The notes: generated from the sequence alone by a model not told the origin. DNA of 38,698 nucleotides from Nitrospinota bacterium (GCA_016234205.1 JACRGN010000234.1:1-38698); one strand, 5' to 3'. Shown: positions 3,604 through 34,087, numbered from the stretch's first letter. Made by a program: numbers and translations.

Positions 3604-3685
3604 ATCCGCAGATTACGCAGATTAACGCAGATTAAAACAAAATATTTTTTAAAAAATCTGCGAAAATCTGCGTAATCTGCGGATT
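3604..3685. repeat. Inverted tandem repeat (cgcagatta)n / (aatctgcg)n
   Basis: atccgcagattacgcagattaacgcagatt ... aatctgcgaaaatctgcgtaatctgcggat. Confidence 0.85.
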
Positions 3686-4161: not shown

Positions 4162-4238
4162 AGTCTAAAAGTCTAAGAGTCTAAGAGTCTAAGAGTTGTT
4201 TCACTTTTAGACTTTTAGACTTTTAGGCTCTTAGACTT
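4162..4238. repeat. Octamer (agtctaag)n / (ttttagac)n inverted tandem repeat
   Basis: agtctaaaagtctaagagtctaagagtctaagagt ... acttttagacttttagacttttaggctcttagact. Confidence 0.85.
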
Positions 4239-9516: not shown

Positions 9517-9578
9517 AGTGTCAGTGTCAGTGTCAGTTAAAGGAATTGTTTTTTTCTCACACTGACACTTACACTTAC
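9517..9578. repeat. Hexamer (gtcagt)n / (actgac)n hairpin
   Basis: agtgtcagtgtcagtgtcagt ... ctcacactgacacttacacttac. Confidence 0.8.
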
Positions 9579-9718
9579 GCTTTAAGTTTTTGTGCTATAT
9601 ACAACACTACTTGTATCAAAAGACACAAGAACTAATAATAGATATAACAAATAAGGTTATTTTTCGGTATTGTTTTTTGAATAGATGTTAATTATAATAA
9701 CCTATCATATTTAATGTA

Positions 9719-9750: not shown

Positions 9751-11301
9751 ATGAATTTTTTAAATAGGCTTCAAGTAAAAATAATATTACCTATCATTCT
9801 CTCTATCGTCATAATTTTCTCCATAATGATATATATTGTGGATAGGATGGAGAGGGGACTGTTTCATGAGGACTGGCTTGTCAAGACTAAGATATATACA
9901 AATTCTATTTCTGCAATGATAGAAAAAGAAATGGAAGGGAAAAGACCTTTTATTGCCCGGGACCTAATCCATAAGTTGAAAAAAATTCCTGGTATGAAAA
10001 ATTTACAGGTTATCAGAACAAATGGAAAAGAGGCATTTGAGGATTTTGAAACATTTTATAAGGTAAAGGAGATTTATCTGTTTTCCCCTGAGGTTATAGG
10101 GGAGTATTTGAATTTAAAAGAGGGAAAAGCAAATGTAGTCAGTGATGAGAGGGTAGAAGCTGTTATGAAGGAGGGGAAGGAGAAAGAGTATTATGGTTAT
10201 GACGAAAACGGAAAGGTGTTCTATGATTATTATCTGCCAATTTTAAATAAATCTGAATGTCATAAATGCCATGGTGACAAAGAAAAGATTCGTGGTATTT
10301 TAAAAATCTCTCTATCCGATGAAAAATTTGCCGAGCATCTGAACAACCACCTCTCTATCATGTTATGGATATCTGCAGCTACTGTAATCATTCTGATAAT
10401 TGTGATTAGCTGGATTGTTTATAAACTGGTTTCCAAGCCGCTGAATACTGTTATTAAGACAATAAAGGAGATTGAGCATGGCGATAAAAATCAGAGGATT
10501 GGTTTGGAATCAAATGATGAGATTGGATATATGGCAACGCATTTTAATATAATGCTTGACAGACTGAAACAGGAGGGACACCTCGCATCTCTCGGCAAAA
10601 TCTCGGCTGTTTTGGCACATGAGATAAAAAATCCGATTGCCGGAATCAGCGGTGCAGTGCAGTTGATTGATGAGGGGCTCCCTGCATCTGACCCGAAGAG
10701 GGAGATTATAAATAAGATAATCAAGGAGGTTCAGAGGTTAGATTCAATGCTCAAAGACCTTCTCAAGTTCTCAAAGCCTATTACTGTAAATCCAAAAGTG
10801 CATGATTTGAATAAAGTGATAACAGATACAATTCATCTGCTGGAATTTAAATGCAGAAAGGGTAAAATATCCATTGACACAAATCTTGACAGCAATATTC
10901 CCAATATCTTTATTGACAGGGAGAAGATTCAACAGGTGTTACTTAATATCTGCATCAATGCTATTGAGTCAATGAAGGAAGATGGAAAACTTACAATTGC
11001 TACATCAATGGATAAACCGAGTGGCAGCGAATACATCCAGATAGATATTTCTGATACCGGATGCGGCATATCTCCTGATGTCATGAAAAATATCTTTACC
11101 CCTTTTTTCACAACCAAGAAAGAGGGTAGCGGGCTGGGACTGCCGATTAGCTTGAGAATAGTTGAAAAACATATGGGGACGATAAAAACAGAAAGTGTTG
11201 TTGACAAGGGGAGTAAGTTTTTAATAATATTACCTATTGATAATTCATTAAATATTCTTAAAGGAGATGCCGAATATAATGACAGCGAGGTATTATTATG
11301 A
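9751..11301 (+). CDS. Sensor histidine kinase with periplasmic c-heme (CHKCH) domain and HAMP
   Basis: Two TMs; YLPILNKSECHKCHG; DEIGYMATHFN; LAHEIKNPI; QQVLLNICINA, DTGCGI, PFFTTK, GSGLGL. Confidence 0.93.
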   Translation: MNFLNRLQVKIILPIILSIVIIFSIMIYIVDRMERGLFHEDWLVKTKIYTNSISAMIEKEMEGKRPFIARDLIHKLKKIPGMKNLQVIRTNGKEAFEDFETFYKVKEIYLFSPEVIGEYLNLKEGKANVVSDERVEAVMKEGKEKEYYGYDENGKVFYDYYLPILNKSECHKCHGDKEKIRGILKISLSDEKFAEHLNNHLSIMLWISAATVIILIIVISWIVYKLVSKPLNTVIKTIKEIEHGDKNQRIGLESNDEIGYMATHFNIMLDRLKQEGHLASLGKISAVLAHEIKNPIAGISGAVQLIDEGLPASDPKREIINKIIKEVQRLDSMLKDLLKFSKPITVNPKVHDLNKVITDTIHLLEFKCRKGKISIDTNLDSNIPNIFIDREKIQQVLLNICINAIESMKEDGKLTIATSMDKPSGSEYIQIDISDTGCGISPDVMKNIFTPFFTTKKEGSGLGLPISLRIVEKHMGTIKTESVVDKGSKFLIILPIDNSLNILKGDAEYNDSEVLL

Positions 11302-12716
11302 AAAAGGCAAGGGTATTGGTAGTTGATGATGAAAATATTATTGCATGGACACTTCAGGAAAAACTGATCAAAGAGGGTTTTGAGGTCAGGACGGTGGAGA
11401 ATGGGGAATCCGCAATTAATTCCATCAAGGAAGATATGCCTGATTTAGCCTTTGTAGATGTCTTCTTGCCTGATATAGGTGGAATTCAGGTATTGAAGGA
11501 GATTATCAGTTTGAATGAGGAAATCCCTGTAATCATGGTTACAGGCTCAGGTTCAGTTGATACAGCAGTTACTGCCATGAAGCTCGGGGCTTATGATTAT
11601 ATCAATAAGCCTTTTAACCTTGCCGAGGTTGCCATTATTGCAAAAAAGGCAATTGAGTCTAAGAGGGTAAGCCGGGAGGTTTCATGGAGATTAGAAAAAG
11701 AGAAGAAGACACACAGTATTGGCAATATAATCGGTGAGAGTAAAGAGATAAAAGGTGTCCTTGATATGATTCAGAAGATAGTCCAGAGTGATGCTACTAC
11801 TGTCCTGATAGAAGGGGAGAGCGGGACAGGGAAGGACCTTGTGGGAAGGGCTATACATTATACGAGCAGAAGGTCAGCAAGGCCTTTCATGGATATAAAT
11901 TGTACTGCGCTGCCGGATACCCTTGTCGAGAGCGAACTTTTTGGATACGAAAAAGGGGCATTTACAGACGCCAAAGCAAAAAAAGTTGGTCTCTTTGAGC
12001 TTGCAGACGGGGGGAGTGTCCTCCTTGATGAGATAGGTGATATGCCCATAGCTACACAGACAAAACTTCTTAAATTTATTGAGAATAAACGTTTCAAAAG
12101 GGTTGGAGGGGCTTCAGATATTGAAGTGGATGTGAGGATTATAGCGGCAACTAACAAGAACCTTAAAGAGGAGATTAAGAGTGGAAAGTTCAGGGAGGAT
12201 TTGTATTATCGCTTAAAGGTGATACCAATTTTTATACCGCCTCTCAGGGTAAGGACGGGCGATATACTTATTCTTGCCAATTATTTTATAAATAAATTCA
12301 ATCAGGAGTTTAGGAAAGATGTAAAAGGACTGTCATCAAAGGCTGAAAAGGCTATTTTATCATATCAATGGCCTGGAAATGTCAGAGAATTAAAAAATGT
12401 TATTGAGAGGGCGATTATCCTTGAGAGTAAAGATAAGATATTAATTGAGCATCTCCCGATTGAAGTTGTAGAGGGTGCTCCTTTTAAAGAGGAGGAACGG
12501 CAGCAGCAATCAAATTTTACCCTTCCAGAAAATGGAGTTCCCCTTGAAGAAGTAGAAAAAAATCTATTGATACAGGCATTAAAAAAGGCAAATGGAAACC
12601 AATCAAAGGCAGCAAAACTTCTAAGTTTGAGCAGATATGCACTGCGGTATAGATTGAAAAAGATTGGATATTTAAAAATAGATTCGACAGATTCAGAAAT
12701 CACACAATCTGTTTAG
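11298..12716 (+). CDS. NtrC/AtoC-family sigma54-dependent response regulator
   Basis: REC domain; GESGTGKD Walker A; ESELFGYEKGAFTDA; LLDEIGD; FREDLYYRL; WPGNVREL; Fis-type HTH. ATGA overlap with the kinase. Confidence 0.96.
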   Translation: MKKARVLVVDDENIIAWTLQEKLIKEGFEVRTVENGESAINSIKEDMPDLAFVDVFLPDIGGIQVLKEIISLNEEIPVIMVTGSGSVDTAVTAMKLGAYDYINKPFNLAEVAIIAKKAIESKRVSREVSWRLEKEKKTHSIGNIIGESKEIKGVLDMIQKIVQSDATTVLIEGESGTGKDLVGRAIHYTSRRSARPFMDINCTALPDTLVESELFGYEKGAFTDAKAKKVGLFELADGGSVLLDEIGDMPIATQTKLLKFIENKRFKRVGGASDIEVDVRIIAATNKNLKEEIKSGKFREDLYYRLKVIPIFIPPLRVRTGDILILANYFINKFNQEFRKDVKGLSSKAEKAILSYQWPGNVRELKNVIERAIILESKDKILIEHLPIEVVEGAPFKEEERQQQSNFTLPENGVPLEEVEKNLLIQALKKANGNQSKAAKLLSLSRYALRYRLKKIGYLKIDSTDSEITQSV

Positions 12717-12721: not shown

Positions 12722-12737
12722 TGGCATATTAATTGCT
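12722..12737 (+). promoter_or_regulatory. sigma54 (-24/-12) promoter for the triheme cytochrome genes
   Basis: TGGCATATTAATTGCT, exact GG-N10-GC spacing, 5 nt after the activator stop codon. Confidence 0.85.
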
Positions 12738-12915
12738 GTTTATATATCCGCTTATTTATTTTATAAAACATTAGGAGGTGAACTGCCTATGTAATTTGTT
12801 GAAATATCTGTTTTATTTTTAGGGTTACATAAAAATTTAAAAAGATAGAATGGGCAATATAACACTTAAAGAGTGCGAAAATACACAGAAAACTAAAAAA
12901 AAGGGGGGGGATGAA

Positions 12916-13296
12916 ATGAAATTCAAATTTTTGATTGTTTTGTTTTTAGGTTTATTTACTCTTCTTTCTATGCCAGAATTTTCACGTGCAGAATATGGCG
13001 ATATCATACTAAATAGAAAGGCTGAAAGTATGAGGAAGGCAGGGGTTAATGATGTCATGTTTCCCCACTGGTTTCATCGTATAAGATTCAAGTGTAAAGT
13101 ATGTCATGAAGATATTTTTATTTTAAAGGCAGGCGCTAATGATATTAACATGAGTCTGATCATGAATGGAGAGAAATGCGGGAAGTGTCATAATGGGATT
13201 ATTGCATGGGAACCGCTTTATTGTGATAGATGTCATTCTTGGGAACCAGGATGGCTCCCCGGACCGGTTCAGCATTCAAAGAAGGTATCTAAATAG
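12916..13296 (+). CDS. Periplasmic c7-type triheme cytochrome c
   Basis: Signal peptide MKFKF...FSRA; FPHWFH..CKVCH..INM..CGKCH..CDRCH. Start reset to ATG 12916 behind a G-rich SD. Confidence 0.9.
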   Translation: MKFKFLIVLFLGLFTLLSMPEFSRAEYGDIILNRKAESMRKAGVNDVMFPHWFHRIRFKCKVCHEDIFILKAGANDINMSLIMNGEKCGKCHNGIIAWEPLYCDRCHSWEPGWLPGPVQHSKKVSK

Positions 13297-13348
13297 ATAA
13301 CAATAAATTTTATGGATTATTGAATTGACTGGGAGGGAATTTAATACG

Positions 13349-14131
13349 ATGAAAACTGATAAAAGACTTATAATGATATTAATGTTTTTGACAATTTTTG
13401 TTGTATCCTTTAATTATTCTGCCTTATCTGCTGAAAAAAAAATAGAAAAGAAGACGAAGGTTAAAGAGACGACCCCTAAACCGGTTGAGCAGTCTACTCC
13501 ATCTGCTGAAAAACCTGCTGAAACGATGCCACCTGTTAGTGGGGCAGAAGAATCATCAGGAAAAACTCTTGACCCAAAAGACCCAAGGAGCCTTATTTAC
13601 CTTGATACAAAAGGAAATAAGGCTGGAACAGGCGATGTTACTAAGTCAGGTGTTGCATCTACATTTGCCAAAGTTGGAGCGGGATGGCATCCCGCCGCAC
13701 TTGCAGAAACAAATCTTCCTATGGATAAATATAAATTAGTGGATTGGGCTAAAATTGTTAAGGAAAAGATAATAGCCCCTCAGTATAGCTTAGATATGAA
13801 CGCAAAGCCGGAAGATGAACAGATGATTGATTTAAATATACTGTTTGAGACTAAAAGTGATTTTATGGATAATGTTATATTTCCGCATAACATACATACA
13901 TGGTGGCTAAAGTGTGAGATATGTCATGAAACTGTCGGCGGGCCTATTTTTGAGCCTTCTGCAGGGGCAAACGATGTAAAAATGGTAGAAATGGCAGGAG
14001 GGAAATGGTGCGGCAGATGTCATAATAAAATAGCATTTCCGCTTGCAGATTGTAAGAGATGCCACATTTCGGCCAAGGGGGTAAAGCCCGATGAGAGCGT
14101 AACTTTAAGAACAATATCAAAATCTAAGTAA
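13349..14131 (+). CDS. c7-type triheme cytochrome c with N-terminal low-complexity linker and extra domain
   Basis: Signal peptide ...ALSA; P/E/K-rich linker; FPHNIH..CEICH..VKM..CGRCH..CKRCH. Start reset to ATG 13349 (SD gggagg). Confidence 0.88.
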   Translation: MKTDKRLIMILMFLTIFVVSFNYSALSAEKKIEKKTKVKETTPKPVEQSTPSAEKPAETMPPVSGAEESSGKTLDPKDPRSLIYLDTKGNKAGTGDVTKSGVASTFAKVGAGWHPAALAETNLPMDKYKLVDWAKIVKEKIIAPQYSLDMNAKPEDEQMIDLNILFETKSDFMDNVIFPHNIHTWWLKCEICHETVGGPIFEPSAGANDVKMVEMAGGKWCGRCHNKIAFPLADCKRCHISAKGVKPDESVTLRTISKSK

Positions 14132-14133
14132 AG

Positions 14134-14484
14134 ATGAATAAAAGGATACTTAGAGGAGGATTATTGTTGGTTTTGTGTTTTATTGCGGATATAGGGATTT
14201 CTATATTTCCAGTTCAAGCAGTTGAGAAGAAACCGCAAGATATTATTATTTTCAATAACCAAAAGGCAAGCAGGGGAAAAGCTGATATGCCCCCTGCCCG
14301 CTTTTCACATTCTATTCATAATAAAAAGCTAAAGTGTAAAGATTGCCATCCCTCTGTTTTTAAAGAGAAAAAAGGGGCGAATATAGTTACAATGAAGAAA
14401 AATATTAATGGCGAGTATTGTGGAAAATGCCACAATGGACAATTTGTATGGGATATGTCAGCTTGTCGCCGTTGTCATGTTTAG
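14134..14484 (+). CDS. Periplasmic c7-type triheme cytochrome c
   Basis: Signal peptide ...VQA; FSHSIH..CKDCH..VTM..CGKCH..CRRCH. Confidence 0.9.
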   Translation: MNKRILRGGLLLVLCFIADIGISIFPVQAVEKKPQDIIIFNNQKASRGKADMPPARFSHSIHNKKLKCKDCHPSVFKEKKGANIVTMKKNINGEYCGKCHNGQFVWDMSACRRCHV

Positions 14485-14785
14485 CAGTTTTGTTTTTTTT
14501 AAATTAATTATGTGTAAAATTAACTATAAGTATGCAATAAGACACACTTCGTATTAAAATTTAATCCTTCCATTATGATTTGTAAAATCCTAAATTATGC
14601 ATTAATCACAGGCTAACACAGTTAAGCACATGTAAAACAAATAATTAAATTCCTTTTTTTGAATTTAAAATATATTTTAACTCATTGAATAATCGTTATA
14701 AATTTGTGATTTTATGATGCATAAATATGGGCATCTTTAAAATATGTTTTACCATTTTTTCTAATAGTAATACTCTTTATAATAA

Positions 14786-14801
14786 TGGCATGATAAATGC
14801 T
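14786..14801 (+). promoter_or_regulatory. sigma54 promoter for the OmcS-like cytochrome
   Basis: TGGCATGATAAATGCT (GG-N10-GC), preceded by about 300 nt of AT-rich intergenic DNA. Confidence 0.8.
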
Positions 14802-14843
14802 TATTTATGATTATCAAGAAGTTTAATTTAAGTATTGAAATAT

Positions 14844-16055
14844 ATGAAAAAAAAGACTTGTATCACATATAGTATATCTTTTGTCCTATTTTTAGCCTTT
14901 TTATTATACAGTATCCCTGTTTCAGCAGTGCATAAAGGTGCGGGTAACCTAACTTGCGGCAATTGCCATACTATGCATAACAGTCAGGGTAACAGCGGTC
15001 TTGGTGGTGTGTCCGGTGGTTCCCTCATTTTGCTCAGGGCGGATGGTATAACAGGCAGAGAAAATATTCACAAACTTTGTCTGCAATGTCATGCGGATAC
15101 TGGAGGTCAGGCAGATACCCAACATGCACCACATGGTCAATATGCTCCAAAGGTTCACTCCGCAACTGCGACATGGAATCAGGATACTCATCTTACTGCT
15201 ATAGGGGCGGGCGGGAATTTCTATCCCGAGGTTGATGCTACAAATTTTGCATTAAGTTCAAGCGGACAAACTGCTGGTCTTGGAAAAGGACATTCTCTTG
15301 GCCTTACAAATGTAACACCTCCTGGTGGAGATACAGCAATAACAGGTTTCTCATGCACAGCCTGCCATGACCCTCATGGGACTGCAGATGCTAATGATCA
15401 AGGCATAAACAAATTTAGGAACTTAAGAAAATCAGCAACAAATGCCGGCAACAATGCCGGTGTTACACTTACTGCTGGAGATTTTACAAGTTGGGTGGGG
15501 GGGATTAACGGAACGAATTTTACAGGGGTATCCCTTCCCGGTGGAAGCGGGGCAGGGGCAGTAGCATGGCCGGTAATCAGCACCACACCTACAGGTAATT
15601 CTGCAGATGCTGCTAACAGTAACTCCTATGGTGGGGGTAGTACGGGTGGTATTTCAAGATGGTGTGCCCAGTGCCATGATAACTGGCATGAGGCTCTTAC
15701 AACGGGAAATCTTGATAACAATAGTATGGATTGGCACAGGCATCCGGTTGATAATCTTTTGAGTGATACAACAACTACTTCAGGTGCAGGAGTAACTATT
15801 ATAAATACTGCTAATTATTCAGTTACAACTGCGGGTCAGTATCTACCGGTTGCGAGTGGTTCAGGGGCTAATAGAGTATTTTATAAAACCAATGAATCAA
15901 CAGATAAGGTTATGTGTCTATCCTGCCATTTTGCTCATGGTGGTCCTTACAATGACAATCTACGATGGGATTATACCTCATCTGTTTCATCAGGTAGTCA
16001 GAACGGCAATGGTGTGCCTTCAACCAGAGGGTGTCAGTTGTGTCATAATAGGTGA
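14844..16055 (+). CDS. omcS: Extracellular hexaheme cytochrome c, OmcS-like (candidate nanowire subunit)
   Basis: Signal peptide ending VSA|VH; six CxxCH: CGNCHTMHNS, CLQCH, CTACHDPHG, SRWCAQCH, VMCLSCHFAH, CQLCH, plus GGNF, KGH, PPGG and RHP in the order I recall for G. sulfurreducens OmcS. Start ATG 14844 (TTG 14835 in the track). Confidence 0.8.
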   Translation: MKKKTCITYSISFVLFLAFLLYSIPVSAVHKGAGNLTCGNCHTMHNSQGNSGLGGVSGGSLILLRADGITGRENIHKLCLQCHADTGGQADTQHAPHGQYAPKVHSATATWNQDTHLTAIGAGGNFYPEVDATNFALSSSGQTAGLGKGHSLGLTNVTPPGGDTAITGFSCTACHDPHGTADANDQGINKFRNLRKSATNAGNNAGVTLTAGDFTSWVGGINGTNFTGVSLPGGSGAGAVAWPVISTTPTGNSADAANSNSYGGGSTGGISRWCAQCHDNWHEALTTGNLDNNSMDWHRHPVDNLLSDTTTTSGAGVTIINTANYSVTTAGQYLPVASGSGANRVFYKTNESTDKVMCLSCHFAHGGPYNDNLRWDYTSSVSSGSQNGNGVPSTRGCQLCHNR

Positions 16056-16110
16056 TGCGAAGCATCATTCCGAGCGAATGCAAGGAATCTTGAGACTAAA
16101 AGTTTAAAAT

Positions 16111-16143
16111 GGGAGGCTTGTAAAAAAGCTTCCCTTTTTTTTT
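16111..16143 (+). terminator. Rho-independent terminator after the OmcS-like gene
   Basis: GGGAGGCTT-gtaaaa-AAGCTTCCC stem-loop (one G-U pair) followed by T9. Confidence 0.85.
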
Positions 16144-16155
16144 GCCTTGATAAAT

Positions 16156-17169
16156 ATGAACCGTTTAAAATTAATTATAATTTTTATTGCTATTATATTA
16201 TTTGGACTTGTAAATACAGAATCAGTAATATGGGCATCACAAGGTATTGACATTAAATATATTACATCATATTCTGCAAAGTCAATGGGCGGGGTTATAC
16301 CTTTAAAAATATATTTTGACCGTCAGCAGAATGAACTTTATATTGGCAGTCAAAGTAAGGAAATTGCTGTTATTAATGAGGATGGTATGATAGTTCACAG
16401 GATTCCACTTGCAGATTCCCCAAAATTACTCTGTGTAAATAAAAATGGCAATATTTACATATCTGATAATAAAGGGGGGATAAGTATTCTTAACTATCGG
16501 GGGGAGTATATAAAAAATCTTGACCTCTCGGCTGTGCCAGATAACACACTTTTAGCAATTCAATCATTTCATGTGGATGAGAATGAACATCTTTATATTG
16601 GTGATGGAAGACTAAGCAGAATTATCGTCCTCGATAGTTCAGGTAATTTTTTATATCAATTTGGTAAAAAGGGTAGTGGCGAGGGGGAATTCTTGAATGC
16701 AAAGGCAATAACTACCGATGCTGAGAGGCTATATCTTATTGACCCGCCACTATTCAGGGTATCAGTTTATGATAAAAAGGATGGTAGATTTCTTTATATG
16801 TTCGGACAGATATCGAGCCTTTTTGGAGGCTTCAGTATGCCATCAAGTATTGATACAGATGGAAAGAGGCTATTTGTTGTAGATACTAATAGGGCAATGG
16901 TAATAGTTTTCGACAGGGAGGGAAAGCCAATCATTGAATTTGGCGGGGTTGGCAGAAATCCTGACAGCCTCTCATGGCCCTCGGATATTAAAGTAGATGG
17001 GAATGGCAAGATCTATGTTTGCGATACAGGAAACGGAAGGATTCAGATATATGAACTTATAGATGTCCAGCAAATTGATGAAGTTAAACCACCAGAGACT
17101 GTTGAATCTGGCAAGGCGGCCGAGCCAATAGAGGTTGAGCCTGTTATTGAAAAAATAATTGTGAAGTGA
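16156..17169 (+). CDS. Exported NHL-repeat beta-propeller protein
   Basis: Signal peptide; FGKKGSGEGEF, FSMPSSIDTD, LSWPSDIKVDGNGKIYVCDTGNGRIQIY. Confidence 0.9.
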   Translation: MNRLKLIIIFIAIILFGLVNTESVIWASQGIDIKYITSYSAKSMGGVIPLKIYFDRQQNELYIGSQSKEIAVINEDGMIVHRIPLADSPKLLCVNKNGNIYISDNKGGISILNYRGEYIKNLDLSAVPDNTLLAIQSFHVDENEHLYIGDGRLSRIIVLDSSGNFLYQFGKKGSGEGEFLNAKAITTDAERLYLIDPPLFRVSVYDKKDGRFLYMFGQISSLFGGFSMPSSIDTDGKRLFVVDTNRAMVIVFDREGKPIIEFGGVGRNPDSLSWPSDIKVDGNGKIYVCDTGNGRIQIYELIDVQQIDEVKPPETVESGKAAEPIEVEPVIEKIIVK

Positions 17170-17175
17170 TTGTTT

Positions 17176-17191
17176 TGGCATATTCTTTGCT
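17176..17191 (+). promoter_or_regulatory. Internal sigma54 promoter between the two NHL genes
   Basis: TGGCATATTCTTTGCT (GG-N10-GC) within a 34-nt intergenic gap. Confidence 0.72.
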
Positions 17192-17203
17192 ATTATATTA
17201 TGC

Positions 17204-18082
17204 ATGATGAAAATGTCTCTCTTAATATTTGGAATTCTCATTATCCTTACATCTAAGGTAGAATCCACACCTTCAAATTTCTATTTTATCAGTGCCATTG
17301 AGAAATTCTCTGATGAGTATAGGTTTGAGGGGTTATCATCAATTTTTATTAATGATGAGGAACTTTATGTTGTAGATAATGGAGGAAACCACATATATAT
17401 TTTTAATCTGGATGGGTCATCTGTTTTTCAATTTGGAAAAGAGAAAGGGATTGCACTTCCCATTGATGTTTTTGTATACAACAATTATATGTATGTGAGT
17501 GCGGAAGGAAAGGATTTTATAGAGATTTTAAATATGAGGGGTGAAAAGATTGGAAAGATAGAACCTCCATACGAAGGGTTTACACCTGGTAAGATGGCAG
17601 CAATTGAAAGGGAAGGGTTCTTTGTTGTAGATAGAAAATCTCTCAATATATGTGTATTTGACAGGGATGGTAAATATCAATATAATTTTGGTGGAAGAAA
17701 TCTATTTAAATCAATTGCTGGTATTGCGGCGAAAAACGGGAAGATTTATGTATCGGTAATGAGCGCTGACCCTGTCGTAAGGGTATTTGATACCAAGGGT
17801 GAATACCTGACAGGTTTTGGACATATTGGTGAAAGCGATCAAAATTTCTCTATGCCATCAGGAATAAAAGTAGATGACAATGGAAATATATGGGTGGTGG
17901 ATGCCTTCAAGCACAGGGTTATTGGCTTTAATATAGAAGGTAAGAAGCAGAATGAATTTGGCATATCAGGAAATCCCAAAGAAGATCTTTATTATCCGCT
18001 AAGTATTGATTCAAAGGGGGACATATTTTATGTAATAGAAAAAGGACGGGGTAGAATAAGTATGTTCAGGAGGGTGGATTAA
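17204..18082 (+). CDS. Exported NHL-repeat beta-propeller protein
   Basis: Signal-like N-terminus; LYVVDNGGNHIYIF, FSMPSGIKVDDNGNIWVVDAFKHRV, LYYPLSID. Confidence 0.9.
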   Translation: MMKMSLLIFGILIILTSKVESTPSNFYFISAIEKFSDEYRFEGLSSIFINDEELYVVDNGGNHIYIFNLDGSSVFQFGKEKGIALPIDVFVYNNYMYVSAEGKDFIEILNMRGEKIGKIEPPYEGFTPGKMAAIEREGFFVVDRKSLNICVFDRDGKYQYNFGGRNLFKSIAGIAAKNGKIYVSVMSADPVVRVFDTKGEYLTGFGHIGESDQNFSMPSGIKVDDNGNIWVVDAFKHRVIGFNIEGKKQNEFGISGNPKEDLYYPLSIDSKGDIFYVIEKGRGRISMFRRVD

Positions 18083-18083
18083 A

Positions 18084-19250
18084 ATGAAGAAGACAGAAAC
18101 TTGCCCTGAGAGAAGCCGAAGGGACAGAAGACAGAAGACAGAAGTAAACGGTTTGAACGGTTTAATCTGTTTGCTTCTTGCTTCTTGCTTCTGTCTTCTG
18201 TCTTCTGTCTTCTCCTTTGCTGGAGATTATCACAAATCAGGTGTTCCCGCACAAACCACCCTTGCCTGTGCCCAGTGTCATGTTATACATGGAACACAGG
18301 GGAGCATATCTTTGATTTATACAGGAGCAACAAATACTTATGCAAAATTACTTAGGTCTGATTCAGTGGTTAATCTCTGCAAGTACTGTCATGACGGAGA
18401 CCCCTTTAATCTTGGAGCGCCAGATCTGTTTAGTCCTATTTATAATGCTGCTGCAGGTGATTTTAATACAGGTGGAACACCTGACGAAGATAAGCGGCAC
18501 AGTATCGGAGTTGATTTAGCAGGAGTAAGTCCGCCAGGTTATGCAGGGAGTGATTGGACAACAGCACAGACAAAATATGGCTCTGTTTTCAGTTGTATAT
18601 ATTGCCATGACCAGCATGGAAATAGTAATTATAGAAATTTTAGGCCCGAGCCGCTGAATCCCTCCTTCAGGGAACCTGGAGGTGACACATCAACGGATTC
18701 ATATAAGATAGTTACATATAATAACGGAGTTTGGGACAATTCATCTTCAATTGCACAGGCAATTAAAGATGGAAATGGTGATGGCAGTAATCCTGCCAAT
18801 CAGTTTTCCACCTCTAATATGACATTCAGAAGCAACACCAAACAGATAGCAGGTTTTTGTGGCAAATGTCATGTAAAGTTTTATAATTCTCTCGGATATG
18901 GCGGTGATGACAGTAGTTATGGTAATGGTAAGCTGGGTGGCAGTGCTGGTGGTGACAACGGAACAGGTACTCAGTGGGTGCGCCACCCGGTAGGCGGTAT
19001 TTCTGTTGGGGTTGGAAATGGTCATACTGACCCCGCAAATTTTGCATCAAATTTTACCGGCGCAAGCCGTGTTCGTGTCATAAATCCAGATGGACTTGAT
19101 AGTGGGAATGATGAACAGCCATTCTGTCTAACCTGTCACAGGTCGCATGGTTCTTCAAATCATTCTAATTTAATATTTGGGGCACCGACAACATTAGGGG
19201 GGGCTGGCACCATGATGAGAGATACATGCCAGCAGTGTCATAATCAGTAG
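18084..19250 (+). CDS. Second hexaheme cytochrome c, divergent OmcS-family paralogue
   Basis: SFA|GDYH; CAQCHVIH, CKYCH, CIYCHDQHG, FCGKCH, FCLTCHRSH, CQQCH; AGDF, KRH, PPG and RHP are colinear with 14844-16055. Confidence 0.82.
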   Translation: MKKTETCPERSRRDRRQKTEVNGLNGLICLLLASCFCLLSSVFSFAGDYHKSGVPAQTTLACAQCHVIHGTQGSISLIYTGATNTYAKLLRSDSVVNLCKYCHDGDPFNLGAPDLFSPIYNAAAGDFNTGGTPDEDKRHSIGVDLAGVSPPGYAGSDWTTAQTKYGSVFSCIYCHDQHGNSNYRNFRPEPLNPSFREPGGDTSTDSYKIVTYNNGVWDNSSSIAQAIKDGNGDGSNPANQFSTSNMTFRSNTKQIAGFCGKCHVKFYNSLGYGGDDSSYGNGKLGGSAGGDNGTGTQWVRHPVGGISVGVGNGHTDPANFASNFTGASRVRVINPDGLDSGNDEQPFCLTCHRSHGSSNHSNLIFGAPTTLGGAGTMMRDTCQQCHNQ

Positions 19251-19260
19251 GAGAAACAAT

Positions 19261-20853
<1,593 letters not shown>

Positions 20854-20879
20854 ATGTATAGGAAATTATAAAAAGCATA

Positions 20880-21050
20880 TAAGGAGAAAGGGAAAAGAAG
20901 ATGGAGAGATGGGGATAAAAAAACAAAAAAAGAATCAGGATACAGATGGACACGGATAACATAGGCTGAAAGCTGAAAGACTTTAACCTTTGAGCCTTGA
21001 GCTTTGAGTTATTATTTATTTCTGTTTCTCCCTTTCCTCCATTCTCCTTA
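20880..21050. repeat. Nested intergenic repeat cluster
   Basis: Outer arms aaggagaaagggaaa...gatggagagatgggga and ttctccctttcctccattctcctt enclose cagatggacacggat and ggctgaaagctgaaag / tttgagccttgagctttgag units. Confidence 0.7.
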
Positions 21051-21916: not shown

Positions 21917-22653
21917 TAGAAGTTAGAAGTCCGAAGTCTGTCTTCTGTCTTCTGTCCTCTGTCCTCTGGTGTCTGATATTGGCCCCTATGTTAGTCAGTG
22001 CCGAGAGTGTGAGGAAGGAGGGATATCGCAATGATTATCTGCCAAACGGGATTGTTCCTAAGCACGAGATGGATACAGCTGAAAATTGGATTGCAATATT
22101 TGAACATCCTAAACGGGGAGAATGGCAGGAGCCGGATAAGGTAATTGAAAAGATGAACCTGAAAGAGGGTGATGTCGTTGCAGATATTGGAGCAGGGTCG
22201 GGTTATTTTACAAGACTGTTTGCCAGGGTTGTTGGGACAACAGGAAAGGCTTATGGGGTAGATATTGAGCCAGAGTTGGTTAAATACATGGAAGAAGATG
22301 CCCAAAGATTGAATTTGAGCAATTATATACCGAAGTTAGCCACAATGGCTGATTCCGGTCTTGAAACTAATAGTGTTGATGTGATCTTTATATGTCTCAC
22401 CTATCACCATCTTGAAGATAGAATCAATTATATGAATAAACTTAAAAAGGTTTTGAAAAAAGGTGGAAGGGTTATAATTGTCGCATTTTATAAAAAGAAG
22501 ATGGACTTTGGTCCCCCCCCTGATAATAAGATTTCGGAGGAAGTGACGATAGAAGAGATGAAAGAGGCTGGTTACCATCTTACCAGACGACTTGATTTTT
22601 TGCGATATCAATATTTTCTTGAATTTGAACCGAATGTAATTAACCACAGATGA
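21901..22653 (+). CDS. Class I SAM-dependent methyltransferase with signal-peptide-like N-terminus
   Basis: WQEPDKVI...VVADIGAGSGYFT...GVDIEP...SVDVIF...YHHL...LKKGGRVIIV. Start reset to ATG 21901 (SD aagga). Confidence 0.88.
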   Translation: METRIIEVRSPKSVFCLLSSVLWCLILAPMLVSAESVRKEGYRNDYLPNGIVPKHEMDTAENWIAIFEHPKRGEWQEPDKVIEKMNLKEGDVVADIGAGSGYFTRLFARVVGTTGKAYGVDIEPELVKYMEEDAQRLNLSNYIPKLATMADSGLETNSVDVIFICLTYHHLEDRINYMNKLKKVLKKGGRVIIVAFYKKKMDFGPPPDNKISEEVTIEEMKEAGYHLTRRLDFLRYQYFLEFEPNVINHR

Positions 22654-22671: not shown

Positions 22672-24336
22672 ATGAAACCACAGATTAACACAGATTCACA
22701 CAGATTATTTAACAGGAAGGAGGAAGCAAGAATAAAGAGACAAGATGCAAGATACAAGAAGCAAGATTCTTTTCTTACTTCTGTCCCTTCGGCTTTGCTC
22801 AGGGCAGGCTTCTGTCTTCTGTCTTCTGTCTTCTTGCTTCTTACCTCTGAGTCTTATGCATCTGTGTGGCAGAAGCCTGAGCTTATAGATGCAGAGACAG
22901 GTGATGCATTCAGAACGAGCATTGCCTTTGACCCTTATGGGAATGCCATCGCCGTATTTGAACAATATACAGATGGAGTCTACAGGATATACGCAAATAG
23001 GTTTTTACCCGATAAAGGTGGGTGGCAGGGACCTGTCATTATTGATGCAGGACCAAGAAATGCCTATGAAGCAAGAGTTGCCTTCAGCTACAGTGGTGAT
23101 GCCATTACAATCTTCAAGCAGAGTGATGGAAATACTTATCGTATATATGCAAATCATTTTATCAGGAGTAAGGGATGGCAGGGACCTGTTGCAATAGATT
23201 CAGGGACAGGGGATGCAGATGGACATCAGATAACATTTGATGCTGATGGTAATGCTGCCGTTGTTTTTGAGCAGAAGTTAAAGGGTGTCTACAGAATCTT
23301 TGCTAATCAATACAGGAATAGAGAAGGTTGGCATGGTGCGGTGGCAGTTGATAAGGGTGAAAGCAATGGATATTTTCCCTATCCTGTCTTTGATTATCAG
23401 GGGAATATTTATGTGATTTATTATAAGGAGGAGGGGGGAGGGCTTGAGGTATACATAAGTAAGTATGAGGGGGGAAAAAAGATATGGAATGAACCCTTTC
23501 GTTTAACCGATAGTCATACTGTTGTTAAGCAGGAAGATTGGAATAAGAAGAGGAGTGATGTAAACAGAGGTATTAAAGGGATATATAATCCACTCTTTCT
23601 TTCTGAGATTAAAAAAAGGATTTATGCCGGGAGTTATACTTATAATTTAAAACGGTTTGAGACCCCTTCTAAGGTAGATTCAAGATTCAGGGATGCCTAC
23701 ACCCCTTCTCTGATAGTTAATAAAGGTGGAGAGATAATGGCATTTTTTGTAAGATGGGATGGAGAGTGTCAAAGGGGATATATGGCTGTATACAGGGATA
23801 ACGATGGGTGGAGTAAGCCGGAGATTATTGATGTAAAAGGAGGGGATGTTGAGCATATAAGGGCTGCAGTAAATTCCAAAGGTGAAATGGCAGTCGTATT
23901 TACACAGTGGGTGGATAACAAACAAGAGGCAAGAGGCAAGAGGCAAGAGGCAAGAAATAATGAAAATTTAAGGATACATGCAAGGCTATATTCCCCCTTA
24001 ATAAAAGGGGATGGTGGGTTGTTTGGCTGGGGGGAGGCTAAAATCATTGATGCAGGTAAGAAGGATGCTTACGGTCCCAATGTGATATATAATGGAGATG
24101 ATGAAATTATAGTAATCTGGTGTCAATGGGAAGTTGAGACCGTTAAAACTTATAGAAATGATTACAGAAAAGGAAGGGGTTGGGGTGAAGCTGTTAGAGT
24201 TGAAAAGGAGGCAGAGACCTGTGGTGGCTGTGGACTACGGATTGCAGCATCTCCCAATGGAATGCCCATAGCCATATTTGAGTTGAAAGCCTATGTTAAA
24301 GAAAGAACAAAAATATATGCCATAGGTGGGAAATAA
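22672..24336 (+). CDS. Exported repeat protein, probable beta-propeller
   Basis: About seven repeats of WxxPxxID.G.G.A....hAF...G.A.AVF.Q....YRIYAN.F; hydrophobic signal ending SYA. Confidence 0.72.
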   Translation: MKPQINTDSHRLFNRKEEARIKRQDARYKKQDSFLTSVPSALLRAGFCLLSSVFLLLTSESYASVWQKPELIDAETGDAFRTSIAFDPYGNAIAVFEQYTDGVYRIYANRFLPDKGGWQGPVIIDAGPRNAYEARVAFSYSGDAITIFKQSDGNTYRIYANHFIRSKGWQGPVAIDSGTGDADGHQITFDADGNAAVVFEQKLKGVYRIFANQYRNREGWHGAVAVDKGESNGYFPYPVFDYQGNIYVIYYKEEGGGLEVYISKYEGGKKIWNEPFRLTDSHTVVKQEDWNKKRSDVNRGIKGIYNPLFLSEIKKRIYAGSYTYNLKRFETPSKVDSRFRDAYTPSLIVNKGGEIMAFFVRWDGECQRGYMAVYRDNDGWSKPEIIDVKGGDVEHIRAAVNSKGEMAVVFTQWVDNKQEARGKRQEARNNENLRIHARLYSPLIKGDGGLFGWGEAKIIDAGKKDAYGPNVIYNGDDEIIVIWCQWEVETVKTYRNDYRKGRGWGEAVRVEKEAETCGGCGLRIAASPNGMPIAIFELKAYVKERTKIYAIGGK

Positions 24337-24400
24337 TAGTTTTAGAGTTGTAGTTTTAGAGTTGTTGATTTGGCTGAGGAGATTAAGTATAATTAAAAAC

Positions 24401-25258
24401 ATGATTAAACTGAAACAACCTATAAAAAATATTATGAGGCGAAAAGGGTTCATCTACGGTGGAGGGGGAGCATTATTTTTACTTCTCCTGATATTTATAT
24501 ATTACTTCTTTTTTGCTAAGGATGTTTTAAAAGACATGGTATTCATACCAGGTGGGGAGTTTATAATGGGGGTTGATATCCCAAAAAAGGAGCAGGGGAA
24601 AAGGGAGGAGGAATTAACAATAGATATTGATGAGACACCTGCACACAAGGTTTATGCAGATGGTTTCTATATAGATAAATACGAGGTTACAAACGTTCAA
24701 TATAAGAAATTCTTAAAGGCAACGGGCAGGAAAACCATCCTTATTGATCCGGTTGATAAGGAGGCTTCATACAACTGGAATGAGGATAACTACCCGGATG
24801 GACAGGGAAATAACCCTGTTGTTCTGGTGGATTTTGAAGATGCAAAGGCATATTGTGAATGGAAAGGGAAGAGACTCCCAACCGAAGAAGAATGGGAAAA
24901 GACATGTCGGGGAGATGCTGGAAAAAAGTGGAGCTTTGGGAATGAAGAGGTTTCCGGATATGCTAATACACGGGAGCTTAATTTGAAGTGGTCGGGCTCG
25001 GTCGGTTCTTTTCCGAAGGACCTCTCGCCCTATAAGGTATTTGATATGACGGGGAATGTTATGGAATGGACAGACTCACGATATTTGCCATATCCGGGCT
25101 CAGAAATGAAGGTAGGTTTTGGAGGGCTTGAAAAGGTAATTCGTGGAGGAGGATGGCTGGTAGATATTCAATCCTCTCGTTGCTCAAATCGCAATATTGC
25201 TCCCCCTACAAAAAGGCACAGGATGCTGGGTTTCAGATGTGCAAAGGATATACGGTGA
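24401..25258 (+). CDS. Membrane-anchored FGE-sulfatase (SUMF1)-domain protein
   Basis: MVFIPGGEFIMG, FYIDKYEVTN, RLPTEEEWEK, DMTGNVMEW, VIRGGGW, GFRCAK. Start uncertain (24401 or 24434). Confidence 0.88.
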   Translation: MIKLKQPIKNIMRRKGFIYGGGGALFLLLLIFIYYFFFAKDVLKDMVFIPGGEFIMGVDIPKKEQGKREEELTIDIDETPAHKVYADGFYIDKYEVTNVQYKKFLKATGRKTILIDPVDKEASYNWNEDNYPDGQGNNPVVLVDFEDAKAYCEWKGKRLPTEEEWEKTCRGDAGKKWSFGNEEVSGYANTRELNLKWSGSVGSFPKDLSPYKVFDMTGNVMEWTDSRYLPYPGSEMKVGFGGLEKVIRGGGWLVDIQSSRCSNRNIAPPTKRHRMLGFRCAKDIR

Positions 25259-25277
25259 GGAGCAAAAAACTGATTTT

Positions 25278-25479
25278 AACCACTGAGACACTGAGGCACA
25301 GAGGAAATTAAATCCGAAATTCGAAGCACGAAATTCGAAACAAATTGGAAACTCAAATGACAAAAATTCAAAACTCTATACTGTCCACCTGTTTTGGATA
25401 TTTGTATTTCAGTCATTTGATATTGTTTCGGATTTCGGATTTCGAATTTTATAATTAATCTCTGTGTCTCCGTGACTGG
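25278..25479. repeat. Nested inverted repeat element (9-mer cactgagg arms around a heptamer cgaaatt / tttcgga hairpin)
   Basis: ccactgagacactgaggcacagagg [aaatccgaaattcgaagcacgaaattcgaaacaa ... ttgtttcggatttcggatttcgaattt] ctctgtgtctccgtg. Confidence 0.85.
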
Positions 25480-25497
25480 CAAATTTTTATAATTTCA

Positions 25498-26334
25498 TTG
25501 AACATTAAGAGACTTTTTACCTTTGTTATCATTATTGCAGGAATAGGTCTTATATTATATGGCAGTGATGCCCTCCATATCAGGAACATACATCCAGAAA
25601 TAGATGGAATGATATATATACCTGAGGGTGAATTCACCATGGGGAGCAAGGGAAGGTTGGAGCATGGATATGACGGTGGCGATGGAAGAGTAGGTCTGGA
25701 GGTTGGAGTTGATGAGATCCCCTTACATAGTATTCAGGTAAATGGATTCTATATGGATAAATATGAGGTCACCAATGCCCAGTATAAGAGATTCATAGAT
25801 GCAACAGGACATGAGGCGCCAGTAGATAGTGTGGCATCAGATGCCCCATATAACTGGAGAAATGGTAATTATCCTGAAGGTGAGGATAACAATCCTGTAA
25901 TTAATGTTACATGGTATGATGCAGATGCCTACTGCCGATGGGCAGGAAAAAGGCTTCCTGTAGAGATGGAATGGGAGAAGTCCTGTCGGGGTTCTGATGG
26001 AAGGAGATGGAGTTTTGGAAATAATTTTATCTCTTCATTTGTTAATACCCATGAACTTGATCTTAAATGGTCGCAGGCGGTTGGCTCATTCCCTGAAGAC
26101 CGATCCCCTTACGGTATCTATGACATGTCAGGGAATGTGAGCGAATGGTCAGGCTCATGGTATAACCCCTATCCCGGCTCTTCACTCAAAAGAGATGCCT
26201 TTGGAGAGAAGAACAGAGTAATACGAGGGGGTTCGTGGTTGGCAGATAATCTTACCGCAAGATGTACAAAGAGGAATTTCGCTATACCTGAAAAAAAGCA
26301 CAGGACGATAGGATTCAGATGCGCAAAGGATTAA
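25498..26334 (+). CDS. FGE-sulfatase (SUMF1)-domain protein
   Basis: N-terminal TM/signal; MIYIPEGEFTMG, YEVTN, RLPVEMEWEK, DMSGNVSEW, VIRGGSW, GFRCAKD; clear paralogue of the preceding gene; TTG start. Confidence 0.88.
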   Translation: MNIKRLFTFVIIIAGIGLILYGSDALHIRNIHPEIDGMIYIPEGEFTMGSKGRLEHGYDGGDGRVGLEVGVDEIPLHSIQVNGFYMDKYEVTNAQYKRFIDATGHEAPVDSVASDAPYNWRNGNYPEGEDNNPVINVTWYDADAYCRWAGKRLPVEMEWEKSCRGSDGRRWSFGNNFISSFVNTHELDLKWSQAVGSFPEDRSPYGIYDMSGNVSEWSGSWYNPYPGSSLKRDAFGEKNRVIRGGSWLADNLTARCTKRNFAIPEKKHRTIGFRCAKD

Positions 26335-26352
26335 GATAAAAAATTTTGAATT

Positions 26353-27987
26353 ATGAATTATGAATTAAGGAAATTGGTTTATATTTTATTTTTTGTAATT
26401 CTCCTTATGGGTTGTCAATCTGAAAATAAGACAGTAGAAGGTAATAGGGAGAAAGAACAGGAAAAAGAGATAGAGCGTTTAAAGGGATTGCTCAGGAATG
26501 ACCCCACAAGGTGGGAGGATCGCCATAAATTGGGTATCGAATATATGACCGCGGGAAAAAATGAAGAGGCAGTTCAAGAATTTTTAGGAGTGATGTCCAT
26601 AAAGCCTGATAATATTGATAATCTACAATCTCTGGGCATGGTATATTATAAAATGGGGAAAAAGCATATGGCACACTTTTACTGGCGCACTGCCCTTGAG
26701 ATAGAGCCGGAAAACAAATTTATATGGGACCTGATAAGAAAGATTGTAAAGGAAAAGGGTGTGGGGGATGACTCCATGGATATAGAAAAATGGGCACAAC
26801 ATTACAAAAATGCTCAGAAGTTATATAAAGAAAGGGATTATGAAAAAGCAGCTTCAGAGTTTGAGCTTGCGGCAAAATCTAATCCATCCGATTCCAGAAC
26901 CTATTTTTCCATAGGTGCAGCATATAAGGCAATGGATAAGATAGATGAGGCAATATCAGCATGGCAGAATGCACTTAAGTTTAAACCGGATGACCTCATG
27001 ATTATGAAATTAATATCACTCGCAAAGGAGAAGAAGGAGAGAGATACTGCAATGGTTAAAGCACAGGAGGCAGTAAAAAAAGATTCCAAGGATTGGAAGG
27101 CACATTCCCGTCTTGCCTCTTTGTATCTGCATGATAAACATGGGAGATTTATAGACGAGGCAGAGGCAGAATATAAAGAGACGGTTCGTCTCAATCCACA
27201 GGATCCAGGTGCGTATAAACAGCTCGCAGAGATAAATTTTTACAAAGGACGTTATGGAGAGGGTATCGGGTATCTTGAGAGGGCATCAAAATATTTATCA
27301 AAGGACGATGTAATACGCAAAAGGATTAAAGACATGAAACTATACCAGAAGCTCTATCAAAAAGGACAGGAGACGTGGAATAAGGGGGGGATTGAAAAAT
27401 ATGATGAAATGGTCTTTGTGCCTGATAGGTTCTTTATAGATAAATACGAGGTAACTAACGTTCAGTATAAGAGATTTCTTGATAAAAACCCTAACCTTAC
27501 TCTGCCGCCCCATTGGAAGAAAGGGGTATATGAGGAGAGGAAGGATAACTATCCAGTCGTAAATGTCGATTGGTATATGGCAGCTCTTTATTGTAAATCT
27601 ATGGATAAACGGCTTCCGACCGAAGAGGAATGGGAGAAGGGAGCCCGTGGGGATAAGGGATTTGATTACCCATGGGGAAATATATTCAGGAATGAAATTG
27701 TAAACAGTGAGGAGGCAGGTTTTGGGAGATTGACCCCGGTTGGTAGTTTTGAAGATGGTAAAAGCCCTTACGGAATTTATGATATGGCTGGGAATGTAAA
27801 GGAGTGGACAGATAGTGAATATAAAGATGGAAATAAGCAATCCCCATTCCACGGAGAGGGGTATAAAATAATACGGGGTGGATCTTTCAAGTCAGGAATG
27901 GAAGAAGTTAAAGCAACAAAGAGGGGATATGCCCCCCCTGTATATACAGACATTGATGTTGGTTTCAGATGTGTAAAGATAAAATAA
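26353..27987 (+). CDS. Lipoprotein with TPR repeats and C-terminal FGE-sulfatase domain
   Basis: Lipobox LLMG|C; multiple TPRs; FIDKYEVTN, RLPTEEEWEKGARG, DMAGNVKEW, IIRGGSF, GFRC. Confidence 0.88.
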   Translation: MNYELRKLVYILFFVILLMGCQSENKTVEGNREKEQEKEIERLKGLLRNDPTRWEDRHKLGIEYMTAGKNEEAVQEFLGVMSIKPDNIDNLQSLGMVYYKMGKKHMAHFYWRTALEIEPENKFIWDLIRKIVKEKGVGDDSMDIEKWAQHYKNAQKLYKERDYEKAASEFELAAKSNPSDSRTYFSIGAAYKAMDKIDEAISAWQNALKFKPDDLMIMKLISLAKEKKERDTAMVKAQEAVKKDSKDWKAHSRLASLYLHDKHGRFIDEAEAEYKETVRLNPQDPGAYKQLAEINFYKGRYGEGIGYLERASKYLSKDDVIRKRIKDMKLYQKLYQKGQETWNKGGIEKYDEMVFVPDRFFIDKYEVTNVQYKRFLDKNPNLTLPPHWKKGVYEERKDNYPVVNVDWYMAALYCKSMDKRLPTEEEWEKGARGDKGFDYPWGNIFRNEIVNSEEAGFGRLTPVGSFEDGKSPYGIYDMAGNVKEWTDSEYKDGNKQSPFHGEGYKIIRGGSFKSGMEEVKATKRGYAPPVYTDIDVGFRCVKIK

Positions 27988-27993: not shown

Positions 27994-28063
27994 AGTGTCA
28001 GTGAATAGTGTCAGTGTCAGTAAAAAAATCATTGCACTGACACTAACACTCACACTGACACTG
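27994..28063. repeat. Hexamer (gtcagt)n / (actgac)n hairpin
   Basis: agtgtcagtgaatagtgtcagtgtcagtaaaa ... actgacactaacactcacactgacact. Confidence 0.8.
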
Positions 28064-31268: not shown

Positions 31269-31273
31269 CACTA
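31192..31273. repeat. Hexamer hairpin forming the 3' end of the WD40 gene
   Basis: agtgaaagtgtaagtgacagtgtcagtaaaaacaaaaat...acttacactgacactgacact translates as SESVSDSVSKNKNAYTYTDTDTNH; near-identical left arm at 32498. Confidence 0.8.
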
Positions 31274-31276
31274 ATT

Positions 31277-32494: not shown

Positions 32495-32568
32495 AAAAGT
32501 GTAAGTGTAAGTGACAGTGTCAGTAAAAACAAAAATACTTACACTTACACTTACACTTTTTTGGGGAG

Positions 32569-33544: not shown

Positions 33545-33601
33545 TGACAGTGTCAGTAGAGAAAATACTGCCACTGTCACTGTCACTGTCACTGTCACTG
33601 T

Positions 33602-34003: not shown

Positions 34004-34087
34004 GAACAAAAAATCAAAGTGTCAGTGTCAGTTTTTAGTGTCAGTGCTTTTTTACTGACACTGACACTATTCACTAACACTTATTAT

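Follow-up and report, generated by a model that had tools for sequence, protein, structure and literature searches.

Why should a locus that encodes one OmcS-type cytochrome carry a second, strongly diverged copy a short distance downstream? The question is raised by a 38,698-nucleotide stretch of DNA from a Nitrospinota bacterium (GCA_016234205.1, JACRGN010000234.1:1-38698; the whole stretch is here called the window), in which two genes for OmcS-like hexaheme cytochromes lie on the + strand: paralogue A (14835-16055; 406 aa, six CxxCH motifs) and paralogue B (18084-19250; 388 aa, a secreted hexaheme cytochrome of the OmcS superfamily). An earlier reading of the stretch, made from the sequence alone and referred to below as the sequence-only reading, had taken B to be a lower-abundance subunit that initiates, caps or anchors the filament. 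Our analysis identifies B as that member of a two-paralogue nanowire locus which is linked to the assembly machinery, with its own putative sigma54-type promoter shared with a beta-propeller gene (NHL2) and a gene for a CsgG/LpoB-like lipoprotein. It further leads us to favour – tentatively, and knowing that it may well prove wrong – the view that B is a low-copy base subunit, an anchor or nucleator at the assembly complex, which is joined to A by a bond between a histidine and heme 5.

Relationship of paralogue B to OmcS

B opens with an ATG at 18084 that is preceded by GGAGG and stands a single nucleotide beyond the stop codon of NHL2 (18080-18082). Read from the sequence, the N-terminus of the product is a signal peptide, with a charged stretch followed by LICLLLASCFCLLSSVFSFA; it probably extends to about A46 with cleavage before G47, such that mature B would begin GDYH. 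Six CxxCH motifs follow (C62, C99, C171, C259, C348 and C382), and B takes its place among secreted proteins of ~350-430 aa with six colinear motifs of this kind. By BLASTP it aligns with A end-to-end at 24% identity (E 1e-12), all six motifs being in register.

The relationship to OmcS itself – the extracellular filament subunit of Geobacter sulfurreducens (GSU2504; PDB 6EF8/6NEF) – is best seen at the level of families. As a single sequence B has no OmcS match in a phmmer search of the PDB, whereas A matches OmcS 6ef8 at E 3.7e-7. When 60 B-family proteins are combined into a profile, OmcS (6ef8_A) is matched at E 1.1e-21 and 80.6 bits over OmcS residues 8-405, and OmcE (7tfs) more weakly, at E 3.8e-6; an A-family profile, also of 60 proteins, finds OmcS at E 1.6e-19 and 73.7 bits, and hhalign joins the B and A families with probability 100 (E 9.4e-52). 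The near equality of 80.6 and 73.7 bits puts OmcS at about the same distance from both families, and it is therefore as superfamily members only that A or B can fairly be called an 'OmcS paralogue'.

An AlphaFold2 model of B (mean pLDDT 66.4, pTM 0.70; poor at residues 267-299 and 356-374) superposes through residues 46-388 on residues 1-406 of 6ef8_A in VIA-align, with Z 11.8 and an rmsd of 3.9 Å over 255 residues; the next-best chain has Z 4.5. The Foldseek match between the model and OmcS is weak (E 0.033, TM 0.35). Judged by profiles and predicted fold, B is a secreted hexaheme c-type cytochrome of the OmcS superfamily and a genuine, diverged OmcS-type paralogue. Nothing recognisable as Geobacter OmcS turned up in a scan of contigs from other genomes or in a 401-genome phylum sample.

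The correspondence between the two proteins extends to single residues. The six CxxCH motifs of B come in the identical order to those of OmcS; the same six positions outside the motifs are histidines, including that of the CHxxH after heme 1 (OmcS His16) and that of an RHP; and both proteins have a histidine within four residues of the mature N-terminus. The differences are that B lacks the histidine after heme 4, which is present in OmcS and in the A family, and that it has two clade-specific histidines, H314 and H360. OmcS is an established filament subunit, B a putative one.

The 5′ coding end of B has a peculiarity of its own. Within 18123-18213 lies an inverted pair of heptamer tandem repeats: a forward arm, (GACAGAA)x3.1, that codes for the charged signal-peptide n-region (RRQKTE...), and a reverse-complementary arm, (CTTCTGT)x3.7, that codes for the signal peptide's hydrophobic core (CLLSSVF...). 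Inverted heptamer repeats occur at the 5′ coding ends of several genes for secreted proteins in the window (18123-18213, 19265-19379, 21937-21968 and 22727-22841), and the orthologues in the related loci G001 and G003 have other heptamers in the equivalent place. Since a period of seven is not a multiple of three, a change in repeat copy number would shift the frame.

Conserved histidines and predicted heme ligands

The histidines were compared across 174 six-motif proteins (A family, 114; B family, 60) aligned with MAFFT --auto. The B family comprises B and 59 of 64 homology-search matches, and the A family comprises A and 113 of the 119 matches listed among more than 1311 in total; five and six proteins, respectively, were dropped because their motif count was not six. 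Also excluded was P0065, the public gene call for the window's own A (360 aa), which takes as its start an internal Met beyond the first CxxCH, so that both heme 1 and the signal peptide are missing from it; the real A gene is the long frame from 14835 (TTG) or from the ATG at codon 4.

Outside the CxxCH motifs A has 13 histidines and B has eight: H50 (DYH), H69 (CHVIH), H139 (KRH), H178 (CHDQH), H301 (RHP), H314, H355 (CHRSH) and H360. Exactly six non-motif columns hold histidine in every one of the proteins (174/174), namely A33/B50, A48/B69, A153/B139, A181/B178, A303/B301 and A368/B355, an invariance across the alignment that is far beyond chance. They are the same six that the sequence-only reading had listed as colinear between A and B, and no other non-motif column is invariant; its expectation that comparison of the two proteins would pick out the true ligands is thus borne out in terms of conservation, ligation itself being predicted. 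Its count of 'six, for six hemes' stands for this colinear set. As an inventory of B it was incomplete, having overlooked H314 and H360, which are also conserved within the B clade.

The same reading was right about the replacement of histidine by tyrosine after heme 4: A H285 (CHDNWH) aligns with B Y267 (CHVKFY). This column is His in 114/114 A-family proteins and a mixture of His (30), Tyr (19) and Phe (10) among the 60 of the B family, which indicates that in the B family a histidine is not an obligatory ligand at this position. H79 occurs in 112/114 A-family proteins and in none of the B family; together with H285 it gives the A family two extra (near-)invariant histidines.

The six invariant columns lend themselves to a threefold reading, in which B would consist of three units of the form His ... 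CxxCHxxH ... CxxCH: H50 / C62-H66-H69 / C99-H103, then H139 / C171-H175-H178 / C259-H263, and lastly H301 / C348-H352-H355 / C382-H386. The pattern can also be read in the OmcS rows of the profile and phmmer alignments. Most likely, as we predict from conservation and spacing, the six invariant non-motif histidines are the six distal heme ligands. B H69 aligns with OmcS His16 and B H352 with OmcS His332, the two residues that, as Wang et al. in 2019 are said to have described, form the inter-subunit bond at heme 5. All 12 axial ligands of OmcS are histidines, 11 of them from the subunit itself and one, at heme 5, from its neighbour (PMC6584659; also PMC12307469), and the three-unit pattern fits this arrangement. 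A full list of OmcS distal ligands was not found in the accessible parts of PMC6584659 (supplement included), PMC9094664 or 10.1101/2022.08.01.502099; since no published list of the remaining OmcS ligands was found, the six-ligand assignment is a prediction.

The two further histidines of B define a lineage. In a FastTree phylogeny of 132 OmcS-like hexahemes B and its relatives form one clade (51 tips, support 0.997; the B clade), within which H314 is near-invariant. H360 belongs to a motif, H-[STY]-[NSM]-[LM], present in 48/51 B-clade proteins and in 0/81 of the other tree sequences; the histidine sits five residues past the CxxCHxxH of heme 5, or ~17 residues past it in a subgroup with an insert. 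A recent preprint describes a hypothetical OmcE 'stopper' as a subunit-like protein with one histidine more than normal, and finds none in the OmcE operons (10.1101/2025.10.22.684050). That H360 lies next to heme 5, the heme that has a foreign ligand in OmcS, and coincides with this definition is suggestive at the level of sequence. Extra conserved histidines are, it should be said, common in the OmcS superfamily.

The locus and its relatives

The genes of the cluster run on the + strand in the order histidine kinase, sigma54 response regulator, three trihemes, A, NHL1, NHL2, B and a 530-aa protein. The sensor kinase (9751-11301; Pfam HAMP, HisKA and HATPase_c) also heads the cluster in L058 and in the metagenome contig L112, and the sigma54-dependent response regulator (11298-12716; Pfam Response_reg, Sigma54_activat and HTH_8; E 3.3e-68) is the likely activator of three sigma54-type -24/-12 sites. 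Across the 38.7-kb window TGGCA-N6-TTGCW is matched exactly at just two places, 12722 and 17176, which are both on the + strand and within the cluster. One of these (12722-12737, TGGCATATTAATTGCT) stands before the triheme genes and recurs as an identical 16-mer in L058 and L112; the other (17176-17191, TGGCATATTCTTTGCT) stands before the NHL2-B pair and recurs as the same 16-mer in G001, G002, G003 and L112. The third site, with one mismatch, precedes A (14786-14801, + strand), and a related site precedes A in L012, L013 and L112. The window's 16-mers occupy equivalent places in G001, G002, G003 and L112, and L112 has exactly three matches in 21 kb against 0.32 expected. Pattern, nearby activator and conservation thus all speak for these sites as putative sigma54-dependent promoters. 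The site before NHL2 ends 12 nt ahead of the ATG in the window and 113 nt ahead of it in L112; at the shorter spacing the transcript would have almost no leader, unless the leader has been deleted.

Behind the first site come three c7-type triheme cytochrome genes (12850-13296, 13325-14131 and 14134-14484; Pfam Cytochrome_C7 and NCBIfam TIGR04257 nanowire_3heme, E 1e-16 to 2e-18). A is followed by a terminator-like hairpin and T-run (16111-16144, hairpin 16111-16134) with a 9-bp stem that includes five G-C pairs, and L112 has a terminator with a 14-bp stem at the equivalent place. With a stand-alone position, its own sigma54 promoter and its own terminator, A looks to be laid out as the gene of a major subunit; type IV pilin genes have a similar stand-alone layout. 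NHL1 (16147-17169), which comes after A in relatives as well, encodes a six-bladed NHL beta-propeller of 340 aa with a signal peptide (Pfam NHL 1.9e-15, DUF5128 6e-17), and NHL2 (17204-18082) encodes an NHL beta-propeller of 292 aa that is 33% identical to NHL1 (Pfam NHL 3.5e-11). The 530-aa protein is encoded 10 nt past B (19261-20853) and combines an N-terminal GNA1162/LpoB/CsgG-like lipoprotein domain, on weak Pfam matches (PF05643 2.1e-5, PF13036 1.1e-4), with Ig-like domains (FlgD_ig); a gene of this type lies downstream of B in G001, G002, G003, G006 and L112 too. A terminator between A and B, a separate sigma54 site for B and tight coupling of B to an NHL gene had all been remarked upon from the sequence alone, and all three are present and retained in relatives: the terminator in L112, the exact site in the four loci named above, and the coupling, translational and across a 1-nt gap in the window, in relatives generally.

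Linkage of B to these neighbours was scored at the 13 B-clade loci with usable upstream flank (the window, G001, G002, G003, G006, G018, G302, G147, G429, G212, G242, L112 and L113; L022, where B is at the contig start, was not scored). An NHL2-type gene is directly upstream of B at 13/13, and 11/13 have an A-type gene farther upstream, at 2-5 kb and in the same orientation, usually with an NHL1-type gene behind it. B-type genes occur in 6/41 genomes in a sample of the window's own class and in 5/401 genomes of a second phylum sample, where they score 345-407 bits. A-type genes occur in seven of the latter, including all five with a B-type gene. Copy number is 1-3 per genome for A-type genes and one for B, and some A-type copies (for example that of L175 and the extra copies of L177) have neither an NHL nor a B gene in the flanks examined, ~7-8 kb to each side.

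Beyond the B clade, distant B-like hexahemes are found in Acidobacteriota, Gemmatimonadota, Planctomycetota, Bacteroidota, Armatimonadota, Latescibacterota and other phyla, often as tandem pairs; these genes, too, lie behind an NHL gene and in clusters with genes for a ~700-aa protein, small CsgG/LpoB/GNA1162-like lipoproteins and peptidyl-prolyl isomerases (PPIases). Loci with up to seven OmcS-like hexaheme paralogues exist (L088, L045 and L037), with NHL genes interspersed and giant relatives having 15-28 heme motifs. Two comparisons of the families carry no weight in what follows. That the B family is far rarer than the A family (64 versus >1311 matches) was rejected as an argument because the A count takes in the whole superfamily. 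Conservation is higher for B than for A among close relatives and lower among distant ones, and gives no clear signal.

The nature of the genes that accompany B is clearest in L112, whose B is 80% identical to that of the window. There B is followed by genes for a lipoprotein, a c7 cytochrome, a DUF4382/NHL propeller and a 687-aa protein without a Pfam match, and the block continues with two CsgG/GNA1162-like lipoproteins, a SurA-like PPIase and a multiheme cytochrome; the CsgG/GNA1162/LpoB-like matches are weak (E 1e-4 to 1e-8). In Geobacter the hexaheme gene GSU2501 (oscC) heads an eight-gene block for maturation and secretion: downstream of it the osc operon is described as encoding a propeller-like protein (OscD), channel-like proteins (OscEFG), a PPIase chaperone (OscH) and cytochromes (OscI/J) (PMC13194489, PMC12977616). 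Compared by published gene descriptions, the block after B in L112 matches the osc block, and this puts B in the position of oscC/GSU2501. The parallel extends to the cytochromes themselves, since oscC/GSU2501 and OmcT (GSU2503) are diverged OmcS-like hexahemes beside a main one, as B is beside A. The roles of these two Geobacter paralogues are given as unknown in PMC12977616.

The present locus differs from the Geobacter arrangement in having two NHL propellers, one for each cytochrome, and sigma54 control. It also differs in the window itself, where NHL2 and the 530-aa lipoprotein are the only block members that flank B and the remainder is on a separate contig: homologues of the c7, DUF4382/propeller and 688-aa proteins are encoded at L111 (contig C33), 11249-15635. 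On C33 they are preceded by ExbB/ExbD/TonB-like and TPR genes and are the last genes before the end of the contig. A further difference is one of occurrence. In the Geobacter genomes surveyed GSU2501 is universal and OmcS optional (PMC12977616, PMC13194489), whereas in the genomes sampled here A occurs without B and not the reverse. Paired or multiple OmcS-like paralogues beside NHL genes are in themselves already known from Geobacter (omcS, omcT and GSU2501); a narrow search of the literature found neither the A-NHL1/NHL2-B architecture nor the B clade and its extra histidines described.

Several features of the window lie outside this cluster. Paired arrays of 6-10-nt tandem repeats, some pairs visibly inverted (short-repeat hairpins), occupy many intergenic regions (3607-3681, 4162-4238, 9517-9582, 27994-28063, 31194-31275, 32497-32558, 33567-33601 and 34018-34068), and Tandem Repeats Finder (TRF) returns 73 rows in the 38.7 kb. 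From 24326 to 27987 run three consecutive FGE-sulfatase (SUMF1-like) genes, the last fused to TPR repeats; before them are genes for a 554-aa secreted protein (without a Pfam match, and with weak beta-propeller-lectin matches in NCBIfam), a rhodanese and a methyltransferase. A type II secretion/pseudopilus set lies at 31277-38129 (GspF, GspG, GspH, further N-methyl pseudopilins, GspK, PilM/PilN-like proteins and GspM), and a link between this set and cytochrome export is possible.

Base subunit, separate filament, relay or cap

How might B act as a base subunit, the reading that we tentatively prefer? B would be transcribed from its own sigma54-type promoter with the dedicated NHL2 and the CsgG/LpoB-like lipoprotein, and would be made in the small amounts appropriate to a component of the machinery. 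Placed at the cell-proximal end of the A wire and held at an outer-membrane assembly complex, it would take electrons from the c7 trihemes and present a His/heme-5 docking surface at which A subunits add. Polymerisation, stoichiometry and the position of B in the wire are here things that we infer; the gene arrangement that argues for an accessory role is directly observed. B is single-copy and sits within an operon of helper genes, which in L112 amounts to a whole osc-like assembly block; A is stand-alone, terminator-bounded, multi-copy in some genomes and present in places with neither B nor NHL genes nearby. The proposal that B initiates, caps or anchors the filament is supported to this extent, but a cap-type signature of loss is missing. 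The organism occurs in groundwater communities, and the 19 datasets listed for 14000-20900 are all DNA metagenomes, with no RNA run among them.

The arrangement has a functional analogy in the CsgB/CsgA pair of curli and in the minor and terminator subunits of chaperone-usher systems, where a diverged paralogue is encoded beside the major fibre subunit and CsgG-like lipoprotein genes. The curli/pilus analogy has been invoked for the initiation and termination of cytochrome wires (10.1101/2025.10.22.684050). It is an analogy without relationship in sequence or fold, and nucleation by B is a conjecture.

A number of observations weigh against an accessory role. B keeps the donor histidine (H69) and the full six-His set, and the loss of no feature marks it as an end subunit; a promoter and a propeller of its own are likewise what one would expect of an independent module. 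Two of the 13 loci, L100 (G212) and L113, have no A-type gene within ~9 kb upstream of B, and in L100 the A-type gene is on another short contig. The association of B with A may, moreover, derive from a single ancestral event, the genomes being kin and not independent cases. Finally, no A-type gene was found in five genomes that have distant B-like genes in osc-like clusters (two titled 'chromosome', the rest multi-contig), the best cross-match reaching 28.7 bits. Relatives of the B lineage thus occur without A, and B could be a filament subunit itself.

On that account B would form a second, independent OmcS-type homopolymer with NHL2 and the lipoprotein, under the sigma54 two-component system that would also control the A wire. 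In its favour, B has the full ligand set and donor histidine, a promoter of its own and a dedicated propeller, and related B-like proteins are the sole OmcS-like cargo of the osc-like clusters in those genomes where A-type genes were not found. We nevertheless think this somewhat unlikely, in view of the absence of any B-clade gene from a genome without an A-type gene (0/5 in the phylum sample, 0/6 among the relatives) and of the single-copy placement of B inside a helper-gene operon, which is not that of a stand-alone, terminator-bounded gene. Alternatively, B may not polymerise at all, and may instead be a monomer, periplasmic or associated with the outer membrane, through which electrons are relayed from the c7 trihemes either to the A wire or to the assembly complex. 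Its encoding together with periplasmic and outer-membrane helper proteins agrees with this, as do the listing of GSU2501/oscC as predicted periplasmic (PMC13194489) and the statement that, among the Geobacter paralogues, wire formation is known for OmcS only (PMC12977616). The invariance of H69 and of the N-terminal histidine in 174/174 relatives is hard to explain for monomers, unless each closes its own heme 5 with its donor histidine, and we consider a relay improbable.

The clade-specific histidines bring a further arrangement into play, that of a terminal cap or 'stopper' in which H360 closes B's own heme 5 while H69 plugs the heme 5 left open on the last A subunit. With its heme 5 closed in this way B could bond to A via H69 and yet not be extended. 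In favour are the confinement of the H360 motif to the B clade (48/51 against 0/81), the near-invariance of H314 and the stopper signature of one extra histidine given in the preprint cited above. Set against these, extra conserved histidines are common in the superfamily, with H79 and H285 as examples in the A family; the AlphaFold2 model is poor at residues 356-374, the very region of H360; and nothing places H360 within reach of the distal face of heme 5. That an OmcS-type wire has in B its dedicated end subunit, with H360 closing its own heme 5 and extension blocked, strikes us as very doubtful, and the full cap, plugging the last A subunit through H69, as a decidedly long shot.

A low-copy base subunit remains our preferred, if tentative, reading of B. 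How cytochrome nanowires start, are anchored and end is stated to be an open question (10.1101/2025.10.22.684050), and the predictions made here bear on how such wires start and stop. The locus offers a clean natural pair, seen across distant lineages: a stand-alone subunit gene and a machinery-linked paralogue, each with an NHL propeller. It gives a residue-level prediction of six distal ligands, and a clade-specific histidine beside the heme that takes its neighbour's ligand. Should B indeed prove to be an end subunit, a cytochrome nanowire would for the first time have a 'stopper' or initiator that can be identified genetically, and one encoded together with the assembly machinery.

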